DNA from: a virus
Lineage: Duplodnaviria; Heunggongvirae; Uroviricota; Caudoviricetes
IMG/VR virus record: IMGVR_UViG_2703718817_000007
Direction: 5' to 3' (one strand)
Length of the DNA: 15,704 bases
The notes beneath the pieces are model-generated. The model did no database searches, was not told where the DNA came from, and saw nothing but the letters and a program-made list of their open reading frames with translations. This document shows positions 157 through 11,557 of the stretch, one piece after another (position 1 is the first letter of the stretch; every line of letters starts with the position of its first letter). The position numbers and the translations under genes are program-made.

Positions 157-324
157 TGGACAGATAGAGCGGTTTATTTCATTCCACAGGATTCTGAGTG
201 CCCCCCCCTCCTCCAATAGGCTGAGCATCCACCTATATAGTTTTAATTTTCATCAATCCATTTAACTATCGTTTAATTGTTGTCACATAGGATTCTGCCG
301 TTTTTAACAATGCAGGATAATAAG

Positions 325-618
325 ATGAAAAAAATGTTGTTTTCTGCCGCTCTGGCAATGCTTATTACAGGATGTGCTCAACAGACGTTTACTGTTGGAA
401 ACAAACCGACAGCAGTAACACCAAAGGAAACCATCACCCATCATTTCTTCGTTTCGGGAATTGGACAGGAGAAAACTGTTGATGCAGCCAAAATTTGTGG
501 CGGCGCAGAAAATGTTGTTAAAACAGAAACCCAGCAAACATTCGTAAATGGATTTCTCGGTTTTATTACTTTAGGCATTTATACTCCGCTGGAAGCGCGT
601 GTGTATTGCTCACAATAA
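325..618 (+). CDS. bor: Bor outer-membrane lipoprotein (serum-resistance lipoprotein of lambdoid phages), 97 aa
   Basis: ORF track 277..618 is the TTG-extended form; internal ATG at 325 follows AGGA at 313-316. N-terminal lipoprotein signal MKKMLFSAALAMLITGC (lipobox ITGC). Sequence agrees closely with lambda Bor / DLP12 BorD as recalled (QQTFTV..KETITHHFFVSGIGQ..ICGGAENVVKTETQQTF). Convergent with the lysis genes, as in lambda. Confidence 0.9.
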   Translation: MKKMLFSAALAMLITGCAQQTFTVGNKPTAVTPKETITHHFFVSGIGQEKTVDAAKICGGAENVVKTETQQTFVNGFLGFITLGIYTPLEARVYCSQ

Positions 619-2180: not shown

Positions 2181-3263
2181 ATGAAAAAATTAACAGTGGC
2201 AATTTCTGCTGTAGCTGCATCAGTACTGATGGCGATGTCTGCTCAGGCAGCTGAAATTTATAATAAAGACAGTAACAAGCTGGATCTATACGGGAAAGTT
2301 AATGCCAAGCACTACTTCTCCTCTAATGATGCAGATGATGGTGATACTACTTATGCCCGTCTTGGCTTCAAAGGTGAAACCCAAATCAACGATCAACTGA
2401 CTGGTTTCGGTCAGTGGGAATATGAATTCAAAGGCAACCGTGCTGAATCTCAAGGTTCTTCCAAAGACAAAACCCGTCTTGCATTTGCAGGCCTGAAATT
2501 TGGTGATTACGGCTCAATCGATTACGGCCGTAACTACGGTGTAGCATACGACATCGGTGCGTGGACTGACGTCCTGCCAGAATTCGGTGGTGATACCTGG
2601 ACCCAAACAGATGTGTTCATGACTGGTCGCACTACTGGTGTTGCAACTTATCGTAACAACGACTTCTTTGGTCTGGTCGATGGCCTGAACTTTGCTGCTC
2701 AGTATCAGGGTAAAAATGACCGCACTGACGTAACTGAAGCCAATGGTGATGGTTTCGGTTTCTCCACTACTTATGAGTATGAAGGATTCGGCGTGGGTGC
2801 AACCTATGCTAAATCAGATCGCACTGACGGTCAGGTCGCCTATGGTAAGAGCAAATTCAATGCCTCCGGCAAAAATGCGGAAGTATGGGCTGCAGGCCTG
2901 AAATATGATGCGAACAATATCTATCTGGCTACCACATATTCTGAAACTCAGAATATGACCGTTTTTGGTAATAACCATATTGCAAACAAAGCACAAAACT
3001 TTGAAGCAGTAGCACAATATCAGTTTGACTTCGGTCTGCGTCCATCTGTTGCTTACCTTCAGTCAAAAGGTAAAGACCTTGGTGTTCATGGTGACCGAGA
3101 CTTAGTCAAGTATGTCGATGTCGGTGCTACTTACTACTTTAATAAAAACATGTCCACTTTTGTTGATTACAAAATCAACTTAATTGACGATAGTAAGTTT
3201 ACCAAAACAGCTGGTATTGATACCGACGACATCGTCGCTGTAGGTCTGGTTTATCAGTTCTAA
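2181..3263 (+). CDS. nmpC: Outer-membrane general porin of the OmpC/OmpF family (NmpC / phage PA-2 Lc-like), intact, 360 aa
   Basis: ORF track 2181..3263. Signal peptide [23 protein letters not shown]|AEIYNK; porin hallmarks ([15 protein letters not shown].., Gly/Tyr-rich beta strands, C-terminal ..VAVGLVYQF). Sits between Q and the lysis genes in the opposite orientation, as nmpC does in DLP12. Preceded by a roughly 400-bp AT-rich region (1780-2180). Confidence 0.9.
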
Positions 3264-3451: not shown

Positions 3452-3835
3452 TCAATTAGAATTATTAGCAACGATATCCATATCTAACCGGATATCTAAT
3501 GCCATTAACATCCCTTCAATTATGCCCTCAGCCTTCTGTAACCTTTTCCCGATATAACCATCCGAGCAGCAATGCTTACTTGCCAGTGACATGAATGTCA
3601 TACCACATACATAATAATCTACTAATAAATCGTGTAAATCGCTGTTGTTCTTTTTCAGACGGGCCATGCACCCGCAAATGATCATCGCGTCATCGTCACA
3701 ACATTGCGGGCGAGATTTTACTTTTGAAGGAATTAATCCCTTAAAACCGGCGGCAATGGACGACCAGGTCACATCTTCATGATTATTAGCCGCCCACGCT
3801 CCCCAACGTTCAAGAACCATCTGAATATCACGCAT
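3452..3835 (-). CDS. Q: Late-gene antiterminator Q (phage 82 / DLP12 QuuD family), 127 aa
   Basis: ORF track 3452..3850 is the TTG-extended form; ATG at 3833-3835 follows GGAG. Product starts [24 protein letters not shown].. with Cys-rich zinc-binding core ([17 protein letters not shown]); length equals QuuD as recalled. Confidence 0.85.
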
Positions 3836-3852
3836 TAACTTTCTCCACAAAA

Positions 3853-4848
3853 TCAGGCCAGCACACCAATCGCCAGTGCGCGATCGATAAAACGAAATAT
3901 CAGCTCCAGCTGGGAGCCATACTTCTCTTCAAATGCCACGGTATCCGCATGCAGCTCGTCGTGATGCTTTCTGCACAAAGGCAACACAAAAAGGTCATGC
4001 GCTTTTGTACCCATTCCCCCCTGACCGTGGCCTATCAGGTGGTGGGGATCATCAGCAGGTTTTCCACAACATGCGCACGGCTGCGTCTTAACCCAGCGCG
4101 TGTACTTTTCATTAACCCAGCGGTGACGTTTTGGGCGTAACATAAAAGACTCCGGCGACTCCGGATCCACTTTCAGCGCCAGCACCTTTTTCGCCTTATC
4201 CTGGATGATGCTGGTGGCAGGAACCGAAGGCACAAGGTCACTTTCCCGGGTAACAGACGGCACAACAGGCTTCGGTAATCTCAGTGCCTTACGGGCTGCA
4301 CTTTCCGGTAAGGCATCCGCCAGATCATTACGAATCAGCCACCAGCACAGTTCCGGCATTGTCACAACATGACTGTCATCAAAACCGAGATCCCGACGCA
4401 CAACAGACAACACCCAGCGGGCACAGTTATCCGTTGCCATTGATTCCAGCCGTTCCGTGAACTGATCGCGCAGCTGGTTATCGCAGTGCCAGCACAGACG
4501 GATTGCGCCCGGAGCGTGTCGCATTGTTGTCATGTTCTCGCTGTGCCAGTCGGAATGAGGCCACTGGCAGCCTTTTTCACGAAGTAACCAGCTTTCAAGA
4601 CATTCCACGCCACCAGCACGACGGATCACTGCCTCATTGCGGAACACGGCCCGAACGGCAGGATCATCCGCCAGCGGTTGTGATGCCGCCGGAACGGCAC
4701 CACTGGCGAAAGATGAATAACGTTCCGGCTCAGGCTCCAGCAGGACACGCCCCTGCATAAACAAGGGCATCAGCTCTGAACCTGGTCTGAACAATACGAT
4801 CCCCATACGCGGGGCAATTTCAGGGGTCAGTAGTGCTCTCACGGTCAC
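3853..4848 (-). CDS. Phage protein with C-terminal Cys/His-rich HNH-like motif (DUF968-like by recollection); function unknown
   Basis: ORF track 3853..4848 (GTG start overlapping the upstream stop; an alternative ATG at the RMGIVLF codon exists). C-terminus [43 protein letters not shown] has paired Cys and His-His motifs. Family name is from memory, unverified. Confidence 0.5.
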
Positions 4849-4849
4849 C

Positions 4850-5665
4850 TCAATGAACGGTATCGAGCAGCTTTAACAGCTCAGGGAATCGGGATTCGAA
4901 GAAATGCGGCTGCGTCTCGCGCGGATTTGCAGGACTGGTGATGTTCTTGCCGAACATGCAGCCTTTCGCGGTCAGCGACCAGAATTTTTTGATGTTGTTA
5001 ATCGCGGTACGGCTGTATCGTTCGCGTTGTTCAACGATCCCCAGCTTCGCCATCTGGTGATATGCCTGATTAGCCGTCAGGCGGATACCATACTGCTTCA
5101 GCAGTGCACTCAGCGACAGCGTAGGGCGGCTTGAACCATCTGGCGCATCAGCAGGTGCATCAATGGCATAGATCGGCATAAGTTCAGGAAGACCAGCTAC
5201 CTTTGATAATTTCTGGTATGCACCAAGTTTCGAGGAGTTTGACAGATTTAGAGTCTTTGCTGCTGATTCAAGCAGAATGACCCCGGATTTAATTTTGTCG
5301 GATGTGGTTTCTTCTGGTGATGAATTATGAAGCGCATCAAAAGTACGTATCACTTTTAAGCTGAATGCCGGGCTGATCCACATTGCATATGCATAGACCA
5401 GCTCTTTACAGACATACGTCCCACCATTGCGCCCCTGAATGGTGATGACAGGAATACTACGGGAATCTCCCGTAGTTTCTTCTTCCAATAATTCCACAAG
5501 AGCCTTCGTTTCAGGACGACGCATAAACTCGTGAACTTCCAGCGAACGGGAGGAGCGATTCTCACCAGCGGCAAGAAGAGCTGCTTTCTGAAGGTCGTTA
5601 AGACAGTAGTTAGATTCGAAGTACTGGCGCACAGAAACGCCATCAATTACAAGCAACTGATTCAT
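4850..5665 (-). CDS. KilA-N domain protein (phage antirepressor/Bro-like architecture), 271 aa
   Basis: ORF track 4850..5677 is the GTG-extended form; ATG at 5663-5665 follows GGAGAAA. N-terminal 100 aa resemble the KilA-N fold (MNQLLVIDGVSVRQ.., ..TYVCKELVYAYAMWISPAFSLKVIRTF); C-terminal half is a separate domain. A consensus LexA box lies just upstream. Confidence 0.7.
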   Translation of the reverse strand: MNQLLVIDGVSVRQYFESNYCLNDLQKAALLAAGENRSSRSLEVHEFMRRPETKALVELLEEETTGDSRSIPVITIQGRNGGTYVCKELVYAYAMWISPAFSLKVIRTFDALHNSSPEETTSDKIKSGVILLESAAKTLNLSNSSKLGAYQKLSKVAGLPELMPIYAIDAPADAPDGSSRPTLSLSALLKQYGIRLTANQAYHQMAKLGIVEQRERYSRTAINNIKKFWSLTAKGCMFGKNITSPANPRETQPHFFESRFPELLKLLDTVH

Positions 5666-5762
5666 TGGTTTCTCCACAAATTTTTATCCACGAGCGGGAC
5701 TGCACTCCCTTTTCGTTGATGCAGGATGAACTTACTGCGATTTTTAATAGTTATCAAGGATA

Positions 5763-5782
5763 CACTGTTCATAAATACAGTA
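5763..5782. promoter_or_regulatory. Consensus-like LexA (SOS) box in the rusA / KilA-N intergenic region
   Basis: cACTGTtcataaatACAGta at 5763-5782: CTGT-N8-ACAG with an AT-rich spacer, close to the TACTG(TA)5CAGTA consensus. On the minus strand it sits immediately upstream of a candidate promoter (TTGATA-17-TAAGTT) for the KilA-N gene. Confidence 0.55.
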
Positions 5783-5827
5783 TCTTTAACGAGGTAATAC
5801 CCAAATTTAGGGTGTTGCTCAATTCCG

Positions 5828-6223
5828 TTACCGAGTTGCTAATTTGCAACTCGCTTTTTCGTACTTACTGATAGTGATCTCGACCTTCCCCTCCGGGATA
5901 ACCGGTCCCCACTCCACCAGCATTCTTTTCACCTGACTGTCGTCTTCCCACACACCCGCGTGGGTCAGGGCGTCAAACAGCGCCTTGTTATAGTTGTCCA
6001 GATCGCGGATCCGGTTATCCGGAGGAAACAACACGATCTCCACTGAAGCAGGTGCCGACGTTGGTTTCGGCAGACGACGTAACTGCTCAACTATTGCTGC
6101 ACACGCCGCGCTCTGGAATTTTCGCCCCGCCGCGCTTATCAGGCTCTTACCAGCAAACGCCCCTTTGTTGGGGTGTCGCCAGTACGTGTTCACGCTGGGC
6201 GGAAAAGGTAGGATCAGCTTCAT
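5828..6223 (-). CDS. rusA: RusA-family Holliday junction resolvase, 131 aa
   Basis: ORF track 5828..6223. MKLILPFPPSVNTYWRH.. with the RusA acidic catalytic region (..DNRIRDLDNYNKALFDALTHAGVWEDDSQV). ATG overlaps the upstream gene stop (ATGA). Confidence 0.85.
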   Translation of the reverse strand: MKLILPFPPSVNTYWRHPNKGAFAGKSLISAAGRKFQSAACAAIVEQLRRLPKPTSAPASVEIVLFPPDNRIRDLDNYNKALFDALTHAGVWEDDSQVKRMLVEWGPVIPEGKVEITISKYEKASCKLATR

Positions 6224-6546
6224 ACTTTCAGGCCCCTCTCATGTAACCAGTGGGCTGCACGCAGCCTGGCGTTTTCCTCACCGGCAAGCAGTGAGCGGAT
6301 AATCCCGACCGCCTCGCTGTCGTCGTCCTTCACCACGGTATGAAGCGTGATCCCCCGGGCCACACCACGCTTTATCGTGATGACGCCTTTTTTCTCCAGT
6401 GCGCGAAGATGCTCCACCGCTGCATTCACTGAACGGTATCCCAGCATGGTTGCCACCTCCTGATTGGTTGGCGGGAAGCCACGTTCTTTCTGATAAGAAA
6501 TCAGCATATCCAGCACCTGCTGCTGGCATTGAGTTAACGTCGTCAT
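6220..6546 (-). CDS. Small protein consisting of a LexA-type N-terminal winged-helix DNA-binding domain only, no S24 peptidase domain, 108 aa
   Basis: ORF track 6220..6546. LTQCQQQVLDMLISYQKERGFPPTNQEVATMLGYRSVNAAVEHLRALEKKGVITIKRGVARGITL parallels the E. coli LexA N-terminus ([55 protein letters not shown]) as recalled. Only about 35 aa follow. ATGA overlaps at both ends. Confidence 0.7.
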   Translation of the reverse strand: MTTLTQCQQQVLDMLISYQKERGFPPTNQEVATMLGYRSVNAAVEHLRALEKKGVITIKRGVARGITLHTVVKDDDSEAVGIIRSLLAGEENARLRAAHWLHERGLKV

Positions 6547-7196
6547 GCCGCCATCTCCCTGACCAGTTTTTCCGCCTGCTGGCGAACCTGCGCCAGAAAC
6601 GCCTCACCACATGCCTCAAGTTCATCGCGCCCGATGTAGCTGATTGCCGGTCCCTTCCAGGTCTTGTCGAAAACAGCAATAGCACCAGCGAAGAAAGCGC
6701 CTGTCGGCACCTGCTTCTCATCTTTCGGGATAAACCAGGCAGGCAGTTCAAAACCAATACGCCCGCGAATAAAAGCAATATGATCTGCATCTTCCGGCCA
6801 CCACACTTCGCTGGTGGCAGCTTTGATCAGGAAAACATAGCGCCCACCTTTATCACGCATGGCACTGGCATGCTTCATGATGTAACGCATGCCTGTGATG
6901 TATTGCCCCTCATGCTGACTGGCGCGGCTGTATGGGGGATTACCAAAGGCAGCACCTTTAAGCTCCGCAAGACGTTCTGACCAGTCATGCGCCAGCGCGT
7001 TGTCTTCCGCCGTGTAATACGCAGCACATTTGGTGTTATCACCGTCAGTGAACAGATCCAGAACAAACGGGCCAAACAGGGTGTTAATTCCCCAGAAAAT
7101 GTTGTCCGGCGTGCGCCACTGATCGCCCACTTCCTTCAGTTCATGGGCTGGTTTGTTCCGCAGTTCCACCAGCGCCTGGCAATATTTATTACTCAT
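6543..7196 (-). CDS. Phage DNA N6-adenine methyltransferase (Dam-like, YfdM-type), 217 aa
   Basis: ORF track 6543..7229 is the GTG-extended form; ATG at 7194-7196 overlaps the upstream TAA (TAATG). Contains the NPPY catalytic motif (AAFGNPPYS) of amino-methyltransferases. Confidence 0.8.
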   Translation of the reverse strand: MSNKYCQALVELRNKPAHELKEVGDQWRTPDNIFWGINTLFGPFVLDLFTDGDNTKCAAYYTAEDNALAHDWSERLAELKGAAFGNPPYSRASQHEGQYITGMRYIMKHASAMRDKGGRYVFLIKAATSEVWWPEDADHIAFIRGRIGFELPAWFIPKDEKQVPTGAFFAGAIAVFDKTWKGPAISYIGRDELEACGEAFLAQVRQQAEKLVREMAA

Positions 7197-7684
7197 TAAG
7201 CCCCCACGTAATTCCCTGACAGATACCACTCTTCACCCGATGCAGCGCGCTTGCTGCTTTTCCGTAAACACCGCTCACGACGCGCCAGAAAATTGTTTCG
7301 TTCTGGTTGGGAGTGGCTTTCACGGAATGCCGCCATCCACACGGTTGCAGCACGACGGTATAAGCCCCTGGACTCCAGTTCTTCAGCCTGGCGGGTCAGG
7401 CACAAAATTACCCGTGGATCGTTAGTGCCGACATAGAAATTGCGCGCAGGTCTGGTTTCACGAACTGGTTGTGGTTCCGGCTCCTGCGCTCTCTCAGTCA
7501 GGCGCGGGAAATGTCTGCGTGTATCCCCTTCACAACGGTGAGCCACACGCCCACTCTGACGTAACTTGCTTGCTGACTGCAGAACGCGCTGCCGTGAGTA
7601 GCCTGCAAAAGCATCCGCAATGTCTCCGGAAGTACACCCCGGATGGGCTTCAATGAATTTCTGAACTTCATTCAAAAGACTCAT
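7196..7684 (-). CDS. PerC-like / YfdN-like putative transcriptional activator, 162 aa
   Basis: ORF track 7196..7684. C-terminal ..EELESRGLYRRAATVWMAAFRESHSQPERNNFLARRERCLRKS resembles the PerC-family signature as recalled; length close to K-12 YfdN (164 aa). SD AGGGGG before the ATG. Confidence 0.5.
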   Translation of the reverse strand: MSLLNEVQKFIEAHPGCTSGDIADAFAGYSRQRVLQSASKLRQSGRVAHRCEGDTRRHFPRLTERAQEPEPQPVRETRPARNFYVGTNDPRVILCLTRQAEELESRGLYRRAATVWMAAFRESHSQPERNNFLARRERCLRKSSKRAASGEEWYLSGNYVGA

Positions 7685-9864: not shown

Positions 9865-10539
9865 ATGAAAACAATCCATGACATCCGGCGGTCTAACGCC
9901 AGAAAACTGAGAGATGGTGTTGGCGGGAATTCTTCCTTTGCCACTATGATTGATCGCGAGCCAACCCAGACCAGCAGGTTTATGGGAGATGGTGCTACTA
10001 AAAATATCGGTGACAGCATGGCACGACACATCGAAAAATGTTTCGACCTGCCTGTCGGATGGCTCGATCAAGAACACCAGACAACGAACATCACAAAAAA
10101 ACCTGATGTTTCAATCACTAATAAACAAATCACATTAGTCCCTGTCATATCATGGGTACAGGCCGGAGCATGGAAAGAAGTTGGATATTCTGAGGTTGAT
10201 TTGAGCACAGCAGAAACGTATCCCTGCCCTGTACCCTGTGGGGAAATGACTTATATCTTGCGGGTGATAGGTGATTCAATGATTGATGAGTACCGCCCGG
10301 GAGACATGATTTTTGTCGATCCTGAAGTACCTGCCTGCCACGGTGACGACGTTATTGCATTGATGCACGATACAGGTGAAACCACCTTCAAAAGGTTGAT
10401 AGAAGATGGGACACAGCGTTATCTCAAAGCGTTAAACCCAAACTGGCCTGAGCCTTACATTAAGATCAACGGTAATTGCTCTATAATTGGAACTGTGATT
10501 TTCTCAGGAAAACCAAGAAGATACAAAATCAAAGCCTAA
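9865..10539 (+). CDS. cI: CI-type prophage repressor (N-terminal HTH plus C-terminal LexA-like S24 peptidase domain), 224 aa
   Basis: ORF track 9865..10539, ATG start. C-terminal domain has GDSM (Ser nucleophile), ..TFKRLI.. (Lys) and VQAG linker motifs as in lambda cI/LexA. Confidence 0.85.
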   Translation: MKTIHDIRRSNARKLRDGVGGNSSFATMIDREPTQTSRFMGDGATKNIGDSMARHIEKCFDLPVGWLDQEHQTTNITKKPDVSITNKQITLVPVISWVQAGAWKEVGYSEVDLSTAETYPCPVPCGEMTYILRVIGDSMIDEYRPGDMIFVDPEVPACHGDDVIALMHDTGETTFKRLIEDGTQRYLKALNPNWPEPYIKINGNCSIIGTVIFSGKPRRYKIKA

Positions 10540-10753: not shown

Positions 10754-11245
10754 CTACAGATTGCCGTTAAGTTTTCTGGACAACTCCTCAATGGATGGAG
10801 GCGATACGTAATCCGGATTTTTATTCATCAGAAACTTATTTTCACAGTGGAGGCACCTGCTTTTATGAAAAAGCTCATCTTCGCTAACCGGGAATGGTTG
10901 AAGTATCGATACTATCTTTTGTCCAAAACATTTTGGGCAAAGATGCATGGTTATGCTGCCACCGTTCACGATTACCTCCTTCGAGTATACAAAAGTACCC
11001 GACTCAAGTTGGTTAAGGATATAGCCTTCCGTCTGAGCCTCAAAGTTTTCGAATTCTGCAATTTTAGCTTTGAGAGAAGCATTTATTTCTTGATAAGAGC
11101 CCACCAGTTCAACGAGAGACACGCATTCGCGCTGAATAGACGCAAGCTTTGAGTTCAGCTCACCAATAGCCGCATTTACTTCAGCTTGAGTTTTTGCCTC
11201 GTTCATTAGTTTTGCAATCTGGGCTGTTTCACGAATAGCCGTCAT
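10754..11245 (-). CDS. AT-rich moron gene: hypothetical protein with N-terminal coiled-coil-like region and C-terminal CxxC..CxxC zinc-ribbon, about 163 aa
   Basis: ORF track gives 10754..11533, but the first 96 codons are Arg/Pro-rich GC-rich sequence that overlaps the repeats and is unlikely to be coding; the ATG at 11243-11245 begins MTAIRETAQIAKLMNEAKTQAEVNAAIGELNSKLASIQ.. and ends ..HLCPKCFGQK..(24 aa)..CLHCENKF.. The ATG has no clear SD, so the start is uncertain. Base composition is clearly more AT-rich than flanking phage DNA. Confidence 0.5.
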   Translation of the reverse strand: MTAIRETAQIAKLMNEAKTQAEVNAAIGELNSKLASIQRECVSLVELVGSYQEINASLKAKIAEFENFEAQTEGYILNQLESGTFVYSKEVIVNGGSITMHLCPKCFGQKIVSILQPFPVSEDELFHKSRCLHCENKFLMNKNPDYVSPPSIEELSRKLNGNL

Positions 11246-11283
11246 TGCTGCCGTTAATTCAGCGATCACATTGAATACTCTTA

Positions 11284-11329
11284 TTGTTGTTGGGGATATC
11301 CAGATTAACCGAATCCTTGTTGTTGGGGA
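11284..11329. repeat. Right arm of the moron-bracketing inverted repeat plus a 13-bp direct repeat
   Basis: ttgttgttgggga occurs at 11284-11296 and again at 11317-11329; the first copy runs into ggatatccagatt (11294-11306), the reverse complement of 10727-10739. Confidence 0.6.
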
Positions 11330-11557
11330 ATAACCAGGTCCACCTCGCCTGATGTGGCTAAAAGCAGGCACATAACAGCTAAGTATTTTCAACCAGAGAG
11401 AATCCTTAGCGTTGTGGTGAATGCGGCTCAGCGCACGCGGGTTAAGGTTGAGGCTGACAGTCGACCTTCTGTGGATACCCACCCGCCTGGTGTGCAACCT
11501 TCGCCAGGCACCGGGAGGCACCCGGCACCACAACTTTATGCTGTGTGTAGTCCTGGC

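Follow-up and report, generated by a model that had tools for sequence, protein, structure and literature searches.

A predicted LexA operator upstream of a KilA-N domain gene in the early-right operon of a lambda-like Escherichia coli prophage

Results

A LexA-type box between rusA and a KilA-N domain gene

In the IMG/VR virus record IMGVR_UViG_2703718817_000007, we have investigated a LexA-type box at positions 5763-5782 of a stretch of 15,704 nucleotides (the window), which precedes a gene encoding a KilA-N domain protein. The window is a portion of a lambda-like E. coli prophage of the PhiR49_1/SfIV type. Over positions 4800-6300, it shares 100% identity with Escherichia phage PhiR49_1 and 99% with Shigella phage SfIV. 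Its early-right operon is located on the minus strand and follows the order cI (on the plus strand), cro, a cII-like gene, an O-like replication gene, a PerC-like gene, a Dam methylase gene (6543-7229, minus strand), a gene for a LexA N-terminal domain (LexA-N), rusA, a spacer, the KilA-N gene, a DUF968/HNH gene and Q. The box is contained in the spacer, a non-coding region of 150 bp in the nin region of the phage. It begins 45 nt past the stop codon of rusA (5828-6223, minus strand; Pfam RusA), the final gene 5' of the spacer, and ends 97 nt ahead of the start codon of the KilA-N gene (4850-5665, minus strand, 271 amino acids), the first gene 3' of it. As in all homologues, this gene starts with the ATG at 5665, which is preceded by the Shine-Dalgarno sequence GGAG (5675-5672), and not with the GTG of the mechanically called open reading frame at 5677.

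The predicted operator reads CACTGTTCATAAATACAGTA (= cACTGTtcataaatACAGta). E. coli-type LexA sites are 20-bp dyads of the consensus form TACTGT-(AT)4-ACAGTA, and the operator is of this kind, with intact CTG and CAG half-sites and a low heterology index (HI, where lower values are better). Its core at 5765-5780 is the sole exact copy of CTGT-N8-ACAG in the window. Taken alone, this 16-bp core is not rare, with 0.20 copies expected per window and at least one copy found in 35 of 200 shuffled sequences. The full site was scored with a matrix compiled from 29 E. coli boxes, with the consensus TACTGTATATATATACAGTA, and obtained an HI of 5.0, which is on par with the operators of recA (4.99) and lexA (lexA1, 4.91). 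This value was reached in none of 200 shuffles of the window, where the runner-up site has an HI of 11.6. When applied to genomic sequence of E. coli K-12 (50 kb around lexA and uvrA/ssb), the matrix recovered at HI ≤ 10 only the three known boxes (lexA1, 4.91; lexA2, 5.09; uvrA/ssb, 6.29), and in the whole 45-kb genome of PhiR49_1 the box at 5763-5782 is the only site with an HI below 11.5. The first-pass annotation of this DNA had assigned an SOS-consensus box to these positions and had named scoring with a LexA position matrix as a check; both the shuffles and the scoring bear it out and place the site in the class of recA and lexA.

On the minus strand, the box is followed by a putative -35 element (TTGATA, 5752-5757) and, at a spacing of 17 nt, by a putative -10 element (TAAGTT, 5729-5734). 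Together they outrank all other promoter candidates on both strands of 5660-5870. We refer to this candidate as P_kilA; judged by the position of its hexamers, it would initiate transcription near 5722. The box is located wholly 5' of the -35 element, spanning about -60 to -41 with a centre near -50.5, whereas LexA sites usually overlap the -35 element, the -10 element or the start site. The first-pass annotation had described the box as abutting a TTGATA-17-TAAGTT promoter. While a promoter candidate with these hexamers is indeed present, a gap of 5 nt separates it from the box and it matches the consensus at just 8 of 12 positions, which is below the threshold of our promoter scan.

Two forms of the junction in E. 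coli prophages

Alignment with phage Stx2a_1447 reveals a swapped module at 5423-5851 of the window, which comprises the N-terminal domain of the KilA-N protein, the spacer and the final codons of rusA. The junction between both genes exists in two forms. In the form lacking a box, which is found in SfII, in Stx2 and Stx2c phages among the matches listed and in many others, the stop codon of rusA is 19 bp from the start of the KilA-N gene. The form with a box was detected in 187 of 5426 complete E. coli genomes (about 3%), including O104:H4 and O111:H8 strains, in 42 IMG/VR loci and also in Shigella phage SfIV. Throughout the copies from E. coli and IMG/VR, the box and the -35 and -10 elements are invariant, and the sole indel among the E. 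coli spacers is an 11-nt deletion in the leader of the predicted transcript. Footprinting within E. coli was uninformative, as all copies of the spacer are about 99% identical. A link to Shiga toxin was considered and dismissed, as the Stx2 phages among the matches listed carry the junction without a box; the box-bearing prophage of an O111:H8 strain contains a late region resembling that of Stx phages and no stx genes.

LexA-type boxes in distant relatives

A scan of distant relatives, with one genome per species, covered 80 loci with a related KilA-N domain. The full-length protein is encoded in 33 of them, usually with DUF968, and often also Q, downstream, and the synteny of the KilA-N and DUF968 genes is kept in about 30 species. 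Within 200 nt upstream of the gene, 6 of the 33 full-length homologues have a box with an HI ≤ 10.5, compared to just 3 among 706 control windows (p = 4e-7 by Fisher's test), and 10 of 33 have one with an HI ≤ 13.6, compared to 9 of 706; the control windows originate from the same loci and are mostly coding, and part of the enrichment may thus reflect the AT-rich composition of intergenic DNA, although the effect is still large. No LexA-type box was found upstream in the 47 loci that share the KilA-N domain only. Good boxes are found in relatives from Citrobacter (AACTGTTCAAACATACAGGT), Raoultella (CGCTGGATGTTTGTTCAGTG), Erwinia (GATTGTATATTTATACAGTC), Edwardsiella (GGCTGTTTTAATATCCAGTA) and Serratia (AGTTGTACGTTTATACAGTG). 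The spacers from Erwinia and Edwardsiella cannot be aligned with the spacer of the window, yet both contain the box. In Erwinia, the scan called a promoter matching the consensus at 10 of 12 positions (TTGCCA-17-TATATT), whose -10 element is located inside the box, in the classical geometry of repression. LexA-type boxes are kept before orthologous genes in other genomes, with decay in some lineages, and the comparative data argue that LexA-type control of the KilA-N gene is under selection.

Closer to the window, the spacers from E. coli, Kluyvera, Raoultella and one IMG/VR phage can be aligned without gaps. The resulting footprint encompasses the proximal half-site CAGTG, the 5-nt gap, the TTG of the -35 element and a -10 element of the form TAAnnT, whereas the 17-nt sequence between the hexamers varies. 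The swapped module had raised the idea that the box might be the KilA-N protein's own operator, which would be co-inherited with its N-terminal domain. This idea was discarded since both N-terminal domain types of the protein occur with and without a box, and the box is therefore not just an own operator travelling with the DNA-binding domain.

Genes downstream of the box

The KilA-N gene is the head of a tightly packed block. A single nucleotide separates its stop codon from the DUF968 gene (3853-4848, minus strand; Pfam DUF968, E 3e-81, and HNHc_6), whose product combines an Orf/NinB-like N-terminal part with an HNH motif, and the Q antiterminator gene (3452-3850, minus strand; Pfam Phage_antitermQ, E 8e-54) starts 2 nt past DUF968. 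Between 5665 and 3452, a search for terminators on the minus strand revealed no convincing one. The DUF968 family consists of an Orf/NinB-like single-strand-DNA-binding domain joined to an HNH motif (PMC4118853), which suggests that the product may serve a damage-induced recombination function.

The KilA-N protein matches Pfam KilA-N (PF04383) with residues 10-114 above the gathering score (E 1.3e-15), belongs to PHROG 129 ('transcriptional regulator') and has named homologues that are all labelled as KilA-N domain or DNA-binding proteins. It is most likely a DNA-binding regulator. For its C-terminal 149 residues (123-271), no Pfam family was found even at E ≤ 10, and the protein shows no Pfam match to ANT/KilAC, Bro-N, AntA, Tum or DinI. 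The AlphaFold model (mean predicted local distance difference test score, pLDDT, of 77.7) retrieved in Foldseek searches of the PDB nothing below E 0.5, with only weak matches to winged-helix proteins such as DnaD-N and PadR, and in the viral structure library BFVD exclusively KilA-N proteins, with E-values down to 6e-10. We considered whether the C-terminal half might be a hidden ANT/KilAC domain and rejected this for want of a Pfam match at E ≤ 10 and of a significant fold match in the PDB. A role in a defence system was similarly rejected: a search with PADLOC gave a weak match of the KilA-N core to the candidate PDC-S22 and no match for the DUF968 protein or the LexA-N protein. BstA-type abortive-infection proteins also bear a KilA-N domain (PMC8585504).

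A truncated LexA paralogue in the same operon

Two genes upstream of the KilA-N gene, in the same operon, the LexA-N gene (6220-6546, minus strand) encodes a truncated paralogue of LexA of 108 amino acids. It covers the entire Pfam family LexA_DNA_bind (1-65 of 65, E 3e-19), lacks the S24 protease and ends in a C-terminal tail of 40 residues, and is organized like gp6 of phage GIL01, a phage protein that is essentially LexA's DNA-binding domain. The alignment with residues 2-69 of E. coli LexA is gapless and the recognition helix reads RSVNAAVEHL, compared to RSPNAAEEHL in the host protein. Since it has no protease domain, the paralogue cannot be inactivated by RecA. A total of 61 phage records contain it, among them SfV, SfII, mEp460, cdtI, Stx2 and Stx2c phages. 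In most of the records listed it is located between the gene of a dam-type methylase and rusA, and the order methylase/LexA-N/RusA/spacer/KilA-N/DUF968/Q recurs in Citrobacter, Kluyvera and Cedecea.

Several further observations concern this gene family. In the relative from Edwardsiella anguillarum, the gene of a LexA-domain paralogue (1241-1435 of that locus) is located 3' of the KilA-N gene and not 5' of rusA; its recognition helix (RSPNAAEDHL) is near-identical to that of the host LexA, and a box with an HI of 6.2 precedes the KilA-N gene. In the window, a weak LexA-like site (CACTGAACGGTATCCCAGCA, 6427-6446; HI 13.2, and 11.4 in Stx2a_1447) is found inside the paralogue gene, where it coincides with codons of the recognition-helix region and is probably a coding coincidence. 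SfII (NC_021857.1), which also encodes the truncated paralogue, contains a perfect LexA box (TACTGTATATAAAAACAGTA, 29167-29186, HI 0.77) within the coding sequence of its cI, where it occupies codons 70-77, in the linker that joins the helix-turn-helix and S24 domains.

Other features of the spacer and the window

The leader of the KilA-N gene contains a hairpin (ACGAAAA-GGGA-GUGCAG-UCCC-GC-UCGU; 5690-5716, minus strand), located 25-50 nt 5' of the start codon. Among 20 leaders with a TGCAG motif, 17 have a (G/U)UGCAG loop closed by stems of at least four pairs. The stems vary by lineage (GGGA/UCCC, GGCGG/CCGCC, GUCGG/CCGAC, UCAU/AUGA and others) and comprise 14 distinct sequences, and RNAalifold detects compensatory changes in all five pairs of the hairpin. 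It occurs in the forms with and without a box alike and has no match in Rfam. At the other end of the spacer, a second hairpin (CGAGTTGC-taattt-GCAACTCG followed by CTTTTT; 5832-5853, plus strand) is located within the last codons of rusA (..KASCKLATR). It resembles a terminator solely for transcripts of the plus strand, which are antisense to the early operon, and is absent from the spacers of Kluyvera, Raoultella and Citrobacter. No promoter or gene on the plus strand that it would serve was found. A short plus-strand RNA running across the box to this hairpin was considered and rejected, as the best plus-strand promoter matches the consensus at 7 of 12 positions with poor spacing, Rfam gives no match there and the hairpin is missing in homologous spacers. 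A GTG open reading frame of 19 codons at 5812 was dismissed in the same way, as it lacks a usable ribosome-binding site.

The cI repressor (9865-10539, plus strand) carries an autocleavage domain, as the first-pass annotation had stated: it contains a complete Peptidase_S24 domain (Pfam, E 1.5e-26) with the motifs QAG, GDSM and FKRL and is, by these features, a self-cleaving repressor. Next to it, an open reading frame of 259 amino acids (10754-11533, minus strand), which is hypothetical in PhiR49_1 and has no match in PADLOC, occupies a site where accessory or exclusion genes of prophages are often found. A match to the small RNA STnc100 (RF02076; 11381-11604, plus strand), located between cI and the early-left genes, extends over the full length of the model and remains below threshold (40.3 bits compared to a gathering score of 47, E 6.7e-06). 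Past Q, the window contains a porin gene in the opposite orientation, then the late promoter region and lysis genes. The porin gene (2181-3263, plus strand), located between Q and the late promoter and OmpC/OmpD-like according to the annotation of PhiR49_1, and the gene of a Bor-like lipoprotein past the lysis genes (277-618, plus strand), named from reading its translation, both look like typical accessory genes.

Discussion

A model for the function of the box

Our results lead us to favour, with reasonable though far from full confidence, a model in which the site at 5763-5782 is a real LexA operator that gates an internal promoter of the KilA-N gene. A literature search revealed no paper on this box, on the function of the KilA-N gene or on the LexA paralogue of coliphages. 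In the undamaged lysogen, the locus would be subject to a double block, with cI keeping pR silent while LexA, occupying about -60 to -41, holds P_kilA low. Repression from near -50 would likely proceed by occlusion of the DNA 5' of the -35 element, which is needed by the C-terminal domain of the RNA polymerase alpha subunit and by sigma region 4. Upon DNA damage, activated RecA would promote the self-cleavage of LexA and P_kilA, as an internal sigma-70 promoter, would transcribe the KilA-N gene, with an output that is independent of cI cleavage. The same promoter probably also serves the DUF968 gene and Q, since the genes are separated by gaps of 1-2 nt and no convincing terminator was found. 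The extension of transcription into Q is the weakest step of this proposal, because the expression of Q before the cleavage of cI would be risky for the phage.

A number of observations weigh against the proposed model. The matrix underlying the HI was compiled from 29 sites and was checked on just three genomic boxes. P_kilA is a poor promoter candidate, with three of six consensus matches in its -10 element and a total score below the scan threshold, and the box overlaps neither of its hexamers nor the start site. A repressor bound at about -50 may repress weakly, and the same position can suit an activator. Since the spacer is so similar throughout E. coli, the invariance of the box in these copies proves little. 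Most prophages with the operon have neither spacer nor box, and control by the box is thus dispensable. In the two closest diverged spacers, those of Kluyvera and the IMG/VR phage, GTG replaces CTG in the distal half-site (HI 14.3 and 10.4, respectively), and in the relative from Citrobacter farmeri the box is fully decayed (HI 19.6); judged by these half-sites, LexA control is not retained in every lineage. Finally, SOS-driven expression of Q prior to cI cleavage would carry the risk of premature lysis, which argues for limited read-through into Q or for a weak promoter.

Alternative explanations

Some of these observations are compatible with other explanations of the box. We consider it improbable that the site arose by chance or is a relic of evolution devoid of a present regulatory role. 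Such an origin would agree with the frequency of the 16-bp core in shuffled sequences, with the decayed versions in relatives (HI 14-20) and with the many prophages that have no spacer, but it is difficult to reconcile with a score of the full 20-mer that was never reached in shuffles, with the lack of any false positive at HI ≤ 10 in the 50 kb of K-12 sequence, with the enrichment upstream of homologues and with the independent appearance of the box in spacers that cannot be aligned. It is still harder to believe that LexA would act at this site as a roadblock or insulator within the early-right operon instead of repressing a promoter. In an undamaged cell that has just been infected, such a block would diminish the read-through from pR into the KilA-N gene, DUF968 and Q, which would delay the late genes and favour lysogeny until SOS induction lifts it. 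The location of the box between two genes of one long operon, shortly past the stop codon of rusA and upstream of Q, and its atypical position relative to the candidate promoter could be understood in this way. Conversely, the conservation of the -35 and -10 elements at fixed spacing and the Erwinia box, which covers a strong -10 element, both point to the control of a promoter, and we know of no case where LexA acts as a roadblock of elongation. Scarcely more credible is the proposal that the KilA-N protein is a LexA-gated antirepressor, directed either against its own cI or against the repressors of co-resident prophages, which would lead to their cross-induction. LexA-gated antirepressors do exist, as illustrated by Tum of phage 186, GfoA and GftA of the Gifsy phages and AntC of N15, whose targets are repressors unable to self-cleave (PMC3121763); the Gifsy locus is found at an equivalent map position, and the box in front of the KilA-N gene is probably functional. 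The protein itself bears no likeness to any antirepressor family (Tum/DinI-like, Gfo/Gft, Ant/KilAC, Bro-N or AntA) in Pfam, PHROGs or the names of its homologues, its fold searches yielded KilA-N proteins and non-significant winged-helix matches, and most prophages keep the gene in the pR operon outside of LexA control. Moreover, the resident cI is a self-cleaving repressor and an antirepressor would thus not be needed for induction. From the LexA-controlled, antirepressor-like KilA-N gene that had been suggested in the first-pass annotation, we therefore retain the LexA-type operator, which has comparative support, and abandon the antirepressor label, and with it the cross-induction of other prophages, for which neither a family nor a fold match provides support.

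The strongest competitor to repression by host LexA, although in itself unlikely, involves the truncated paralogue as the main or an additional user of the operator. Expressed from pR once the phage is induced or infects a cell, it would bind near -50 and either close P_kilA again, resulting in a pulse of expression, or activate the promoter in the manner of GIL01 gp6, and it might also keep SOS genes of the host shut. The paralogue has a full LexA DNA-binding domain, in whose recognition helix S39, N41, A42, A43 and E45 are retained, and it is encoded nearby in the same operon, in a gene order that recurs in Citrobacter, Kluyvera and Cedecea. The location of the box centre near -50 with a fixed gap to the -35 element would suit a protein that touches RNA polymerase, and gp6, which is itself a truncated LexA homologue, activates a lytic promoter from -43.5 (PMC6182141). 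In Kluyvera and in the IMG/VR phage, the element is conserved apart from a distal half-site that fits LexA poorly. Against this stands a 99% identical copy of the paralogue in Stx2a_1447, which has neither spacer nor box, and a 97% identical copy in SfII; because such near-identical proteins exist in phages without the box, their function cannot depend on this site. Besides, gp6 recognizes a different palindrome and not LexA boxes (PMC6182141), residues 44 and 45 of the helix vary among phage paralogues (VE, AD, TA, AT and GD) in no pattern that we could relate to box variants, and binding to the site is a conjecture from its proximity and the geometry of the box. An even more speculative extension combines both proteins in a two-LexA circuit of coliphages of the SfV/SfII/SfIV/Stx2c type. 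Cleavable host LexA would shut the KilA-N/DUF968/Q promoter in the lysogen, and after induction the non-cleavable paralogue would take over the operator and possibly also SOS boxes of the host, thereby timing Q and the late genes and damping the SOS response of the host in the course of lytic growth.

Implications

If LexA gates P_kilA as proposed, this type of prophage has a second SOS-sensing input, by which the cleavage of LexA would lead to the expression of a DNA-binding regulator, a recombination protein of the Orf/HNH kind and possibly Q without awaiting the cleavage of cI. LexA responds to lower levels of damage than lambda-type repressors, and prophage genes could thus be expressed at sub-inducing doses of antibiotics. 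The truncated paralogue could be a tool of the phage to manipulate the SOS response. Should its effect be limited to making a single accessory gene SOS-inducible, the box would be another entry in a long list of LexA-regulated genes on mobile elements. Beyond the features described in the first-pass annotation, the analysis has revealed the packed block of KilA-N, DUF968 and Q genes, the position of the box 5' of the -35 element and the truncated LexA paralogue two genes upstream.

Comparison with known systems

At the promoter of rstA in CTXphi, LexA works together with the phage repressor RstR. Work by Quinones and colleagues (2006, J Biol Chem 281:39407) reportedly found that LexA represses this promoter by blocking the access of the C-terminal domain of the RNA polymerase alpha subunit, which would be the same mechanism as the one proposed here for a box near -50. 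CTXphi is a filamentous phage of Vibrio. The closest parallels are provided by the dinI/antirepressor loci (gfoA, gftA) of the Salmonella prophages Gifsy-1 to Gifsy-3, where one LexA box, together with a promoter of its own, is likewise located in the early-right arm of a lambda-like prophage, 3' of the replication genes and with a palindrome preceding the locus, and provides an SOS output that bypasses the immunity repressor (PMC3121763). The payload of the Gifsy loci consists of a DinI homologue and a small antirepressor, whereas the box described here precedes a KilA-N protein of 271 residues, an Orf/HNH protein and probably Q. Since the Gifsy repressors are not cleaved, their locus is the trigger of induction; in the window, the cI carries an S24 domain and the locus is not needed for this purpose. 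The distance between box and ATG also differs, being 19 in each of the Gifsy dinI genes (PMC8072944) and 97 nt here, with the box 5' of the -35 element. Coliphage 186, with the LexA-repressed promoter p95 of tum, and N15, with AntC, similarly employ a LexA-repressed promoter to drive a regulator in a temperate coliphage, but Tum and AntC are proven antirepressors of non-cleavable repressors (PMC3121763) and share neither sequence nor fold with the KilA-N protein. As in the window, host LexA boxes and a phage protein that is essentially the LexA winged-helix domain are found together in GIL01 (PMC6182141). This Bacillus tectivirus has no cI, its gp6 binds its own palindrome (GaCACAC GTGTGaC) at -43.5 and not the LexA box (PMC6182141), and the coliphage paralogue occurs also in phages without a box near the KilA-N gene. 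The locus thus joins a known class of LexA-controlled prophage loci, in which it stands out by its payload, the position of its operator and its LexA-like neighbour.

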